Of a DNA stretch of 8,338 nt, positions 4,682 through 6,732 are shown in pieces. The notes under the pieces are model-generated. The model made no database searches and was not told the origin of the DNA. It saw only the letters and a program-made list of their open reading frames with translations. Origin of the DNA: a virus (Duplodnaviria; Heunggongvirae; Uroviricota; Caudoviricetes); the IMG/VR virus record IMGVR_UViG_2671180846_000031; one strand, 5' to 3'. The stretch's first letter is position 1; every line of letters begins with the position of its first letter. The position numbers and the translations under genes are program-made.

Positions 4682-4972
4682 CTACCCCCTTGCGCGTGGT
4701 TTCTTCACACCCGGAACGCAGGCCCGGCCTTCCGCCACATCCTGCCCACGACCGGTCAGTTCCGCGATGAAATAACCGTTAATCAGAACGCGTTTGCGCA
4801 CCAGTCCCTGCTCGGCAAGCCAGGCAATGTGGGTGTGAACGGTGTCGCGGGACACGCGGTGGCCGTAATCATCCAGACAGTCCTGGAGCACGGATTCACC
4901 CAGTTCACCGTTGTAATCTGCCAGCGACCGCAGAATGACCAGACGCTGATCTTCAGTAATGAAATCACTCAT
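4682..4972 (-). CDS. Small conserved phage protein, Mu gp26-positional equivalent; function unknown
   Basis: A 96-aa ORF whose ATG (4972..4970) overlaps the stop of the upstream gene (ATGA), with AAGGA upstream. It is soluble (no TM segment) with a basic C-terminal tail (GVKKPRARG). No family is confidently recognised from sequence alone. Confidence 0.5.
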   Translation of the reverse strand: MSDFITEDQRLVILRSLADYNGELGESVLQDCLDDYGHRVSRDTVHTHIAWLAEQGLVRKRVLINGYFIAELTGRGQDVAEGRACVPGVKKPRARG

Positions 4973-5277
4973 TGCGTTTTTTTCCTTACAGCCTGCTCCA
5001 GCAGCAGTTCGTTCTGATAGGAGACAGAGCGGAGCGTGGCGTTCGTGGTTTTCAGTTCACCCCGCAGGGTCACGATTTCCACATTCAGACGGTTGACCTC
5101 AGCTTCTGTCGGCAGTGACGACAGGCGGGTTTCCACCTTCTCAACGCGGTCGGAGAGTTTTTCAAAGGCCTCGCGGGGGACAAACGTTTTGCGCATCAGC
5201 GCCATGAATATCCCGCCAGCGGTTGCCGTCGCCGAAAGGATCGGCACAACATAATCTTTAACGATGCTGACCCACAT
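4969..5277 (-). CDS. Small type-II membrane protein, Mu gp25-like; candidate lysis-associated protein (possible releasin)
   Basis: A 102-aa ORF with GGAGG SD about 8 nt upstream of ATG 5277. It has a single N-terminal TM helix (VVPILSATATAGGIFMALM) followed by a coiled-coil-like segment (EKLSDRVEKVETRLSSLPTEAEVNRLNVEIVTLRGELK). Position after the spanins matches Mu gp25. Confidence 0.55.
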   Translation of the reverse strand: MWVSIVKDYVVPILSATATAGGIFMALMRKTFVPREAFEKLSDRVEKVETRLSSLPTEAEVNRLNVEIVTLRGELKTTNATLRSVSYQNELLLEQAVRKKTQ

Positions 5278-5867: not shown

Positions 5868-6198
5868 TCGTGGCCGCCTCACTGATTTGTGAAATGAGTT
5901 GCAGGGTGTGCTGCTGATTTGCCAGCACCTGACGCGCCTCATCCCGCTCACGCACAAGCACCTGATTATTGTCTTCAAGGCGCTGCGTCTTCTGGTGCAT
6001 TCCCCATATAGCGGCAACCAGTACAGCGATAATCCCCAGCGCCGCCATGCACGCCCCGGCAATCAGGGCCGGTAAGGCATTATTCACCGCAGCCACAGGA
6101 CACCCCGTAACAGCAGTACCGCACACAGCAGCGCTATCATGAGCGGTCGCCAGAAGCGGTTCAGACTTTCGGCAAGTCGTAGCGACATAACCATTCAT
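5698..6198 (-). CDS. i-spanin (Rz-like inner-membrane spanin subunit)
   Basis: A hydrophobic TM segment (ALPALIAGACMAALGIIAVLVAAIWG) is followed by a long charged, Gln-rich helical domain (QKTQRLEDNNQVLVRERDEARQVLANQQHTLQLISQISEAATNEKQQ...) and a C-terminal Cys pair (RRAVCEIRAC). It is immediately downstream of the endolysin and contains the out-of-frame o-spanin. The start is ambiguous: ATG 6198 (overlaps lys by 38 nt), GTG 6096 or 6087, or ATG 6048; the ORF-track start at 6219 is a TTG. Confidence 0.55.
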   Translation of the reverse strand: MNGYVATTCRKSEPLLATAHDSAAVCGTAVTGCPVAAVNNALPALIAGACMAALGIIAVLVAAIWGMHQKTQRLEDNNQVLVRERDEARQVLANQQHTLQLISQISEAATNEKQQNIQHSEGQQSVVRRSLAAVPAASAPVPDDVADRVRRAVCEIRACEAGADPR

Positions 6199-6661
6199 CC
6201 GCCGAACGGCGGGCCTCAAGGCCGGGGAGTTTCACCCCCTTTGAATAAATCCAGCGGATATACTGCTTACAGGACGCGGGCATCTGCCCGGCATTGATCA
6301 GGCGCAGAAGCGTGGAGTTGCGGAAGTTCGTTTCACCGGCCCAGAAGATCCACGAAGCCAGCGCCACCGTCTGACCACGGGTAAGCGGCACCTGAACACG
6401 CCGATCAATGGCCGCAAAGGCCCATTTCATGTCCTTTTCCAGTAGTTCCAGGCATTCTTCATCTGTCAGGGTCATACCCGGTTTCACATCCGGGCCGGTA
6501 TGGCCGTAACAGATGGTGGGTGTACCGGTGGGATCGATATACGTGGAGTTTTCTTTCCCTTCCCAGTAACCGGTGTAATGCGTGGCAATCGTGAACGTCC
6601 CGGCACCGGCCAGAACAAGGGCAATCAGCTTTTTACGCAGTGGTGCGGGGAGTTTTGGCAT
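6161..6661 (-). CDS. lys: Endolysin, T4-type lysozyme (GH24) with N-terminal signal-anchor-release (SAR) domain
   Basis: A 166-aa ORF with ATG at 6661. The N-terminus MPKLPAPLRKKLIALVLAGAGTFTIATHY has basic residues then a weakly hydrophobic Gly/Ala-rich helix, typical of SAR endolysins. It is followed by YWEGKENSTYIDPTGTPTICYGHTG, which has the Glu...Asp...Thr catalytic spacing of T4-lysozyme-like enzymes. Mu Lys is a known SAR endolysin. Confidence 0.8.
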   Translation of the reverse strand: MPKLPAPLRKKLIALVLAGAGTFTIATHYTGYWEGKENSTYIDPTGTPTICYGHTGPDVKPGMTLTDEECLELLEKDMKWAFAAIDRRVQVPLTRGQTVALASWIFWAGETNFRNSTLLRLINAGQMPASCKQYIRWIYSKGVKLPGLEARRSADEWLCRYDLPKV

Positions 6662-6662
6662 T

Positions 6663-6700
6663 GTTACGCTGTCTCATGATGTTCTCTGAGTCAGCGTAAC
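6663..6700 (-). promoter_or_regulatory. Perfect 9-bp inverted repeat (GTTACGCTG ... 20 nt ... CAGCGTAAC) abutting the lys start codon; candidate regulatory site or translation-occluding hairpin
   Basis: Plus-strand 6663-6671 gttacgctg and 6692-6700 cagcgtaac are exact reverse complements. On the minus-strand mRNA the 3' arm covers positions -2 to -10 relative to the lys ATG, where an SD would sit. No T-tract follows, so it is not a terminator. Confidence 0.35.
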
Positions 6701-6732
6701 GGTGAAGGAGAGGCGGCAGGCTTTGCGGAATA

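Follow-up and report, generated by a model that had tools for sequence, protein, structure and literature searches.

What is an inverted repeat doing at the start codon of an endolysin gene? In the window analysed here, the whole stretch of 8,338 nt in which every gene lies on the minus strand, the activator gene mor and the endolysin gene lys are separated by a gap of 71 bp (on the minus strand, mor ends with its stop at 6733-6735 and lys begins with its ATG at 6659-6661). As an earlier note on this DNA had pointed out, the gap contains a perfect 9-bp inverted repeat, GTTACGCTG (6663-6671) and CAGCGTAAC (6692-6700), whose arms are exact reverse complements 20 nt apart and whose 3' arm covers lys positions -10 to -2 in mRNA sense. 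The note had regarded the repeat either as an RNA structure gating the translation of lys or as a DNA site for a regulator such as the Mor/C-type activator.

The junction of mor and lys

The Sp18-type Mu-like prophage to which the junction belongs is present in 231 of 5426 complete E. coli genomes, with a junction identity of 85.6-100%. The limits of mor and lys used here (Table 1) match the CDS limits in the RefSeq annotation of identical prophages. The stop codon of mor (TGA, 6735..6733) is located inside the block that we regard as the predicted activator site. The complete prophage copy contains one Mor/C-family gene while Mu contains two, Mor and C, and the regulatory cascade thus appears to be one tier shorter than that of Mu. 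Mu has no holin, and its lysis needs a SAR endolysin and a DUF2730 releasin, which are both transcribed from Plys (PMC9239132). According to Pfam, the window encodes both a SAR endolysin and a DUF2730 releasin.

The relatives of the junction fall into two groups: class A, which is window-like, and class B, which comprises sequences from Citrobacter, Salmonella, and others with about 83% Lys identity and a different leader. The position of the lys start is confirmed by the class B relatives because they use GTG at the same codon, after a GGAG SD. Elsewhere in the window there are three runs of 50 Ns (204-253, 503-552, and 1084-1133), and the gp30/F-like minor head gene contains a tandem duplication (254-502 and 563-811, period 309 bp, 249 nt, 97% identical). 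In RefSeq, the corresponding gp30/F-like gene and the portal gene of strain E2865 are marked as frameshifted, with a 'tRNA-OTHER' feature nearby; ARAGORN found no tRNA in positions 1-1300 of the window.

Table 1. Features of the mor-lys junction and its surroundings (positions refer to the window)
Feature	Position	Strand	Remarks
gemA	7737..7231	minus	
Intrinsic terminator between gemA and mor	7200..7223	minus	sole terminator-like site on this strand in 6100-7800
mor	6733..7158	minus	sole Mor/C-family activator gene of the prophage; Pfam PF08765, E = 2.8e-32; single Mor-family CDS in the identical RefSeq prophage
Predicted Mor binding region, block CTGATATTCCGCAAAGCCTGCC	6715..6736	minus	about -50 to -29; contains CCGCAA 6728..6723
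5' arm of the hairpin (mRNA sense), GUUACGCUG-A-CUCA	6687..6700	minus	restricted to transcripts with an upstream start
-10 hexamer TACGCT of the predicted Plys	6693..6698	minus	within the hairpin's 5' arm
Predicted late transcription start, G	6686 (+/- 2 nt)	minus	first loop base; 7 nt after the hexamer
Hairpin loop, GAGAACAUCA	6677..6686	minus	
3' arm of the hairpin, UGAG-A-CAGCGUAAC	6663..6676	minus	lys positions -15 to -2, including the sole SD-like GAG
lys, GH24 endolysin with signal-anchor-release-type N-terminus	6161..6661	minus	Pfam PF00959 (Phage_lysozyme); ATG 6661..6659
DUF2730 protein, homologue of the Mu gp25 releasin	4972..5277	minus	Pfam PF10805
Spanin-like genes, TraR/DksA zinc-finger gene, terminase and portal genes		minus	

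The repeat extends beyond the nine base pairs to 14-nt arms that are complementary at 13 of 14 positions (nine perfect pairs, one mismatch, and four more pairs) and enclose a loop of 10 nt. In the mRNA, the 5' arm, the loop, and the 3' arm follow each other in this order, and only a single A separates the 3' arm from the AUG. The 42-nt hairpin segment has a folding energy of about -20 kcal/mol, and the hairpin still forms in a context of 261 nt. Folding the surroundings of the lys start, which the earlier note had proposed as a check, gave a z-score of -3.9 for a 106-nt segment, with none of 200 shuffles being as stable.

Regarded on its own, the repeat is not exceptional. Perfect 9-bp inverted repeats with loops of 3-30 nt occur 0.98 times per dinucleotide-shuffled window, and 60% of the shuffles contain at least one. 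Because about one is expected per shuffled window, the 9-bp repeat is not beyond chance. Arms of the 13/14 type are found 0.05 times per dinucleotide-shuffled window. The energy of -20 kcal/mol is also unexceptional across this GC-rich sequence, shuffled windows holding between 22 and 69 44-nt windows that are as stable, and the raw minimum free energy was therefore dropped as a window-wide measure of significance. The Rfam 15 covariance models did not give any match at E <= 1 in the whole window. Given that the repeat itself is unremarkable, the case for a function rests on its position and on the comparison with relatives. Another perfect 9-bp inverted repeat, at chance level, is present in gemA (7528-7539 and 7568-7579).

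The earlier note had also described the lys start as poor in SD sequences, with a GAGA only in the loop. The first part stands, the late lys mRNA having only a weak SD (GAG with 10-nt spacing), but the GAGA nearest to the start codon is located in the inner stem, where UGAG pairs with CUCA. A 14-codon out-of-frame ORF on the minus strand (6677..6633), whose AUG is located in the loop and inner stem, extends across the lys start. All class A sequences have it unchanged; class B does not have it.

A predicted late promoter in the spacer

The mor-lys spacer very likely represents a Mu-type, Mor-dependent late promoter, Plys. A late promoter in this gap had already been considered in the earlier note, and the sequence bears this out with a putative activator block and a -10 hexamer that are spaced as in the late promoters of Mu. 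The block CTGATATTCCGCAAAGCCTGCC is found a second time in the prophage, directly before the head protease gene, with 18 of 22 positions identical and at the same distance to its hexamer, TATGCT, as found here to TACGCT (shared TAnGCT). The chance expectation for such a match of 18/22 in 52 kb is estimated at about 0.004. The block is invariant in the 15 class A variants, and the predicted Mor site shows a weak dyad symmetry (TTTC-N9-GCAA). Both classes share the arrangement of CCGCAA, 24 nt, and TAC(G/T)CT. The spacing CGCAA-N24-hexamer is that of the three mapped late promoters of Mu, where CATAA-N24 leads to TAGACT in Plys, CAAACT in PI, and TATCCT in PP (promoter sequences from the oligos in PMC4461284). 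Mu late promoters have -10 hexamers but no -35, and C binds to an imperfect dyad centred at -43.5 (PMC2582627). TACGCT matches the -10 element at T1, A2, and T6; this hexamer and the predicted discriminator together make up the 5' arm of the hairpin. A consensus sigma-70 scan of 6100-7800 did not find a promoter, as would be expected if the promoter is activator-dependent.

For comparison, 21 representative loci from roughly 18 lineages were aligned on the hexamer. The position of the half-site is kept in all of them. Between hexamer and start codon there are 31-37 nt in 20 of the 21, while L215/L216 have 42-43 nt. A search for further late promoters of the prophage, such as equivalents of PP and Pmom, with up to 6 mismatches retrieved only the sites at lys and at the protease gene, and the region upstream of com does not contain a clear match to the late promoter motif. 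At the second late promoter (L042 12221..12172, minus strand, before the head protease gene), TATGCT is only 6 nt away from the annotated ATG. Therefore, either the protease/scaffold mRNA is leaderless or the annotated start is wrong. As a practical use, late operons of Sp18-type prophages, which are frequent among O157 and further Shiga-toxin-producing E. coli, can be located by searching for CCGCAA-N24-TAnGCT.

The motif TCAGAGAA directly after the -10 hexamer is common to the window and Mu Plys. The start of Mu Plys was reportedly determined by S1 mapping (Margolin et al., 1989). We took the Mu +1 from the oligo design in PMC4461284, which extends 20 nt downstream of the S1-mapped start and thus places the +1 within TCAGAGAA. 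By this alignment, late transcription of lys would start at about 6686. As this predicted start is the first loop base and thus located 3' of the 5' arm, the late mRNA would not contain the hairpin, and shifting the start by 2 nt in either direction would still leave the late RNA without the 5' arm. For the predicted late RNA, GAGAACAUCAUGAGACAGCGUAACA-AUG, the amount of structure does not exceed that of its shuffles (z = +0.8).

The lys start in read-through RNA and in other lineages

The terminator scan did not reveal any terminator between mor and lys, and every mor-encoding RNA should therefore continue into lys. How mor itself is transcribed could be explained by read-through of the 7223..7200 terminator, or by a weak promoter whose TAAACT falls within the T tract. 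This terminator, which precedes mor, may limit the amount of read-through RNA. In such RNA, opening lys positions -15 to +5 costs 15.1 kcal/mol, compared to 4.0 kcal/mol in RNA starting at 6686. When the upstream 72 nt were dinucleotide-shuffled, the cost was 5.5 +/- 1.4 kcal/mol and none of 150 shuffles reached 15.1 kcal/mol, which was also not reached with any of 14 non-cognate promoter regions from other lineages.

Based on these predictions we consider it probable, though by no means certain, that the hairpin silences lys translation on read-through from mor and that the start at Plys gives a shorter, translatable mRNA. The gating of lys translation proposed in the earlier note would thus apply to transcripts begun upstream but not to the main late mRNA, whose predicted start is in the loop. 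Mor-carrying transcripts from early or middle read-through would enter lys with the hairpin keeping the lys start closed, and no endolysin would be made while Mor is being made. Accumulated Mor would then bind to 6736..6715 and RNA polymerase would start at about 6686, in the loop. The resulting late mRNA would lack the 5' arm and have a 25-nt unstructured leader, and would be translated, its translation efficiency being an assumption. In this way the hairpin would sort transcripts by their origin and protect the holin-less lysis cassette of SAR endolysin and DUF2730 releasin from being expressed too early. At least part of this insulation would be provided by an intrinsic terminator behind mor/C in most relatives. 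Mor dependence, the start site, and the read-through transcripts are all predictions from the sequence.

The dyad is conserved in class A, as the earlier note would have it for a functional structure. Among 15 distinct class A sequences with up to about 14% divergence, none of the 26 paired hairpin positions is variable, while 2 of the 12 unpaired hairpin positions (the mismatch and one loop base) and 10 of the 32 positions of the spacer 5' of the hairpin vary. Covariation of the arms, in contrast, was not found within class A, where the stem is without variation. The invariance of the stem could instead be caused by selection on the -10 element and the translation start region.

A stronger argument comes from lineages that pair the two regions with sequences of their own. 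Searches with Lys on genome contigs gave only one locus, and a scan of viral contigs with the Mor protein together with a single-sequence protein search only gave near-identical copies from E. coli and Shigella; the other lineages were reached by alignment-based searches. Positional homology is lacking between the hairpins of different lineages, and they were therefore compared by their opening energies relative to shuffles and non-cognate promoters. The same two regions are paired, by unrelated sequences, in about 17 other Mu-like lineages, strongly in four or five of these and weakly in most. In L209, ACCCTCCTT (-10 and discriminator) pairs perfectly with AAGGAGGGT (SD), and 1 of 200 shuffles reaches the observed value. 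In L215/L216, a 14-bp stem begins at the -10 and reaches into the SD in front of an amidase-type endolysin (1-4 of 200 shuffles). UUUAUCCU.AGUCGA pairs with UCGACU.AG.GAUAAA in L223 from Serratia (0 of 200), and TCTGTC-GTTA with TAAC-G-GACAGA in L153 (3 of 150). Twelve lineages are just modestly above the shuffle mean (p of 0.03-0.15), individual p-values across the weak lineages being 0.03-0.37, and Mu, L188, and L219 do not show any excess promoter-start pairing. All 20 non-window representative loci are above the shuffle mean, the lineages not being fully independent.

Some relatives contain other repeats in this region. In L193/L186 and their relatives, which have class B spacers, GTTACT is found three times as direct repeat (at about -52, at the -10, and at about +14) and once inverted over the SD. 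These repeats result in two mutually exclusive hairpins, and in the predicted late RNA the start region is fairly closed with an opening cost of 8-11 kcal/mol. In L157, the 5' end of lys contains about eight tandem copies of CCCCAAAAG, some 115-190 nt past the C stop. The copies extend the cytoplasmic N-terminal part of the SAR endolysin by (Pro-Lys-Ser)n, and the region extended is the one where basic residues confer releasin dependence in Mu.

The main rival to silencing is that the complementarity does not have any dedicated function but is a by-product of the conserved -10 and lys start regions in combination with chance, the translation of lys from read-through RNA being irrelevant or controlled elsewhere. 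We regard this as unlikely. A repeat expected about once per shuffled window, folds of -20 kcal/mol that are common in a GC-rich window, a class A stem without covariation, and the missing excess of pairing in Mu, L188, and L219 are what a by-product would look like. However, the 13/14 arms, expected only 0.05 times per window, are placed exactly between the -10 and the start codon, the occlusion was reached neither by the 150 shuffles nor by the 14 non-cognate promoters, and the arrangement recurs in independent lineages with different sequences and even with a different endolysin family.

The comparison with relatives also bears on a possible role of the hairpin at the 3' side of the mor transcript. 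A hairpin or terminator behind mor/C is missing in class A and L215/L216 only, which both have the strongest promoter-start hairpins. This trade-off between terminator and hairpin is a loose one, as both are found in L223 and in L209. The closest outgroup, from Salmonella (Mor 65-68% identical), has an identical activator block and a canonical terminator before it, whereas in class A the mor reading frame runs on to the TGA within the activator block. Class A therefore looks like a terminator-less derivative relying on the hairpin. In L215/L216, the 14-bp hairpin between the -10 (TACACT) and the amidase ATG is followed by U6-7 and resembles a full intrinsic terminator; read-through transcripts may thus be terminated there as well as silenced.

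The hairpin of the window might itself act as a pause, a processing signal, a stabilising structure, or a weak terminator that limits entry into lys. In favour of this, most relatives have a hairpin or terminator behind mor/C and class A does not, and the equivalent hairpin in L216 is followed by U7 like a true terminator. Such a role in place of a block to translation is nevertheless quite unlikely. The stem of the window is followed by AAUGCCAAAAC and not by a U tract, and the hairpin was not called by the terminator scan, although the same scan passing over it does call the 7223..7200 terminator. An interrupted stem of 13 bp would also be an unlikely RNase III site. In addition, just 1 nt lies between the 3' arm and the AUG, which is a sensible place for occlusion, and a role at the 3' side would be compatible with translational silencing.

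It is very unlikely that the hairpin is part of the late lys mRNA itself and gates or times its translation there, being opened by a factor, by temperature, or by translation of upstream sequence or of a uORF. The lack of a good SD at lys and the 14-codon uORF, which begins in the hairpin and overlaps the lys start, would suit such a role. However, it needs a transcription start upstream of 6700, where a motif for one is missing and the 32 nt from the mor stop to the stem are taken up by the activator block and the promoter spacer, and it conflicts with the conserved hexamer in the 5' arm and with the alignment of the Mu Plys start to the loop. The coupling to upstream translation suggested in the earlier note is unlikely as well, because the stem begins 32 nt after the mor stop, out of reach of a terminating ribosome and too distant for ribosome-mediated unwinding. 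Finally, it is highly improbable that a dimeric protein, be it Mor, as the earlier note had considered, or a repressor of Plys, uses the repeat as its DNA operator: a dyad overlapping a promoter would fit proteins of the Mor/C type, which bind imperfect dyads, but the repeat is at about -14 to +24 while Mor/C footprints cover about -30 to -55 and the activator site by homology is 6736..6715, such a repeat does not accompany the activator block at the prophage's second late promoter, the arms do not recur beyond chance in the 52-kb prophage region, and other lineages retain the pairing with entirely different arms, which fits an RNA structure and not a conserved protein site.

Known systems and the timing of lysis

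Silencing of read-through transcripts has a precedent in phage T4. Early transcripts enter the lysozyme gene e with its start region sequestered, and late promoters are located in the DNA encoding the 5' strand of the structure so that the late transcripts are translated (McPheeters et al. 1986, reviewed in PMC3014915). The T4 genes soc, 49, and I-TevI behave in the same way (PMC3014915). The hairpin of the prophage is best read as a computationally inferred case of this gene e logic on a Mu-type promoter. As in gene e, the SD and start of an endolysin gene are within a hairpin on upstream-initiated transcripts, which is computed here, and the late start is inside the structure and 3' of the 5' strand, as predicted by alignment; in both cases premature lysis would be avoided. 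The promoters are of different types, gp55-type late promoters (TATAAATA) in T4 and a predicted sigma-70 promoter needing a Mor/C activator in the prophage. There is also no sequence relationship between the two, the prophage being temperate and transposable with a SAR endolysin and a releasin. Likewise, soc, gene 49, and I-TevI share the promoter-in-hairpin logic but differ in gene and promoter class.

In its layout the junction resembles Plys of Mu, which is also located between the activator gene and lys, has the half-site 29-30 nt upstream of TAnnCT, lacks a -35, has TCAGAGAA at the start, and has a similar distance of 36-37 nt from the hexamer to the start codon. The half-sites differ (CCATAA in Mu, CCGCAA in the prophage), and Mu uses Mor plus C where the prophage has one activator gene. 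Furthermore, Mu has an intrinsic terminator behind C and no excess promoter-start pairing (z = 0.4), whereas in the prophage the pairing is strong and no terminator lies behind mor. Within the Mu family, com-mom is another case of a start-codon-sequestering hairpin that controls a toxic late gene. However, the functional mom mRNA carries its hairpin, which Com opens, while the functional mRNA of the prophage is predicted not to contain the hairpin and would not require any protein. In the literature searched, promoter-in-hairpin control of lys was not found described for Mu-like phages.

In Mu-type phages, which do not have a holin clock, the timing of lysis depends on when the SAR endolysin and the releasin are made. 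It is possible, though somewhat less likely than not, that the lys promoter core of Mor/C-controlled phages has to satisfy two selection pressures at once, as -10 and discriminator and as an 'anti-start' complementary to the region where endolysin translation begins, so that lysis genes are translatable only from the activator-dependent start. Insulation at the RNA level would then replace or trade off with a terminator downstream of the activator gene and could be a convergent general rule for lysis timing in holin-less systems. If silencing by the hairpin is true, it would explain how a prophage with a single Mor and without a terminator between mor and lys avoids making endolysin during activator synthesis. 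A device so far seen only in lytic phages of the T4 type would then also exist in temperate transposable phages, on another class of promoter, and this would point to a convergent evolution of promoter-in-hairpin control.
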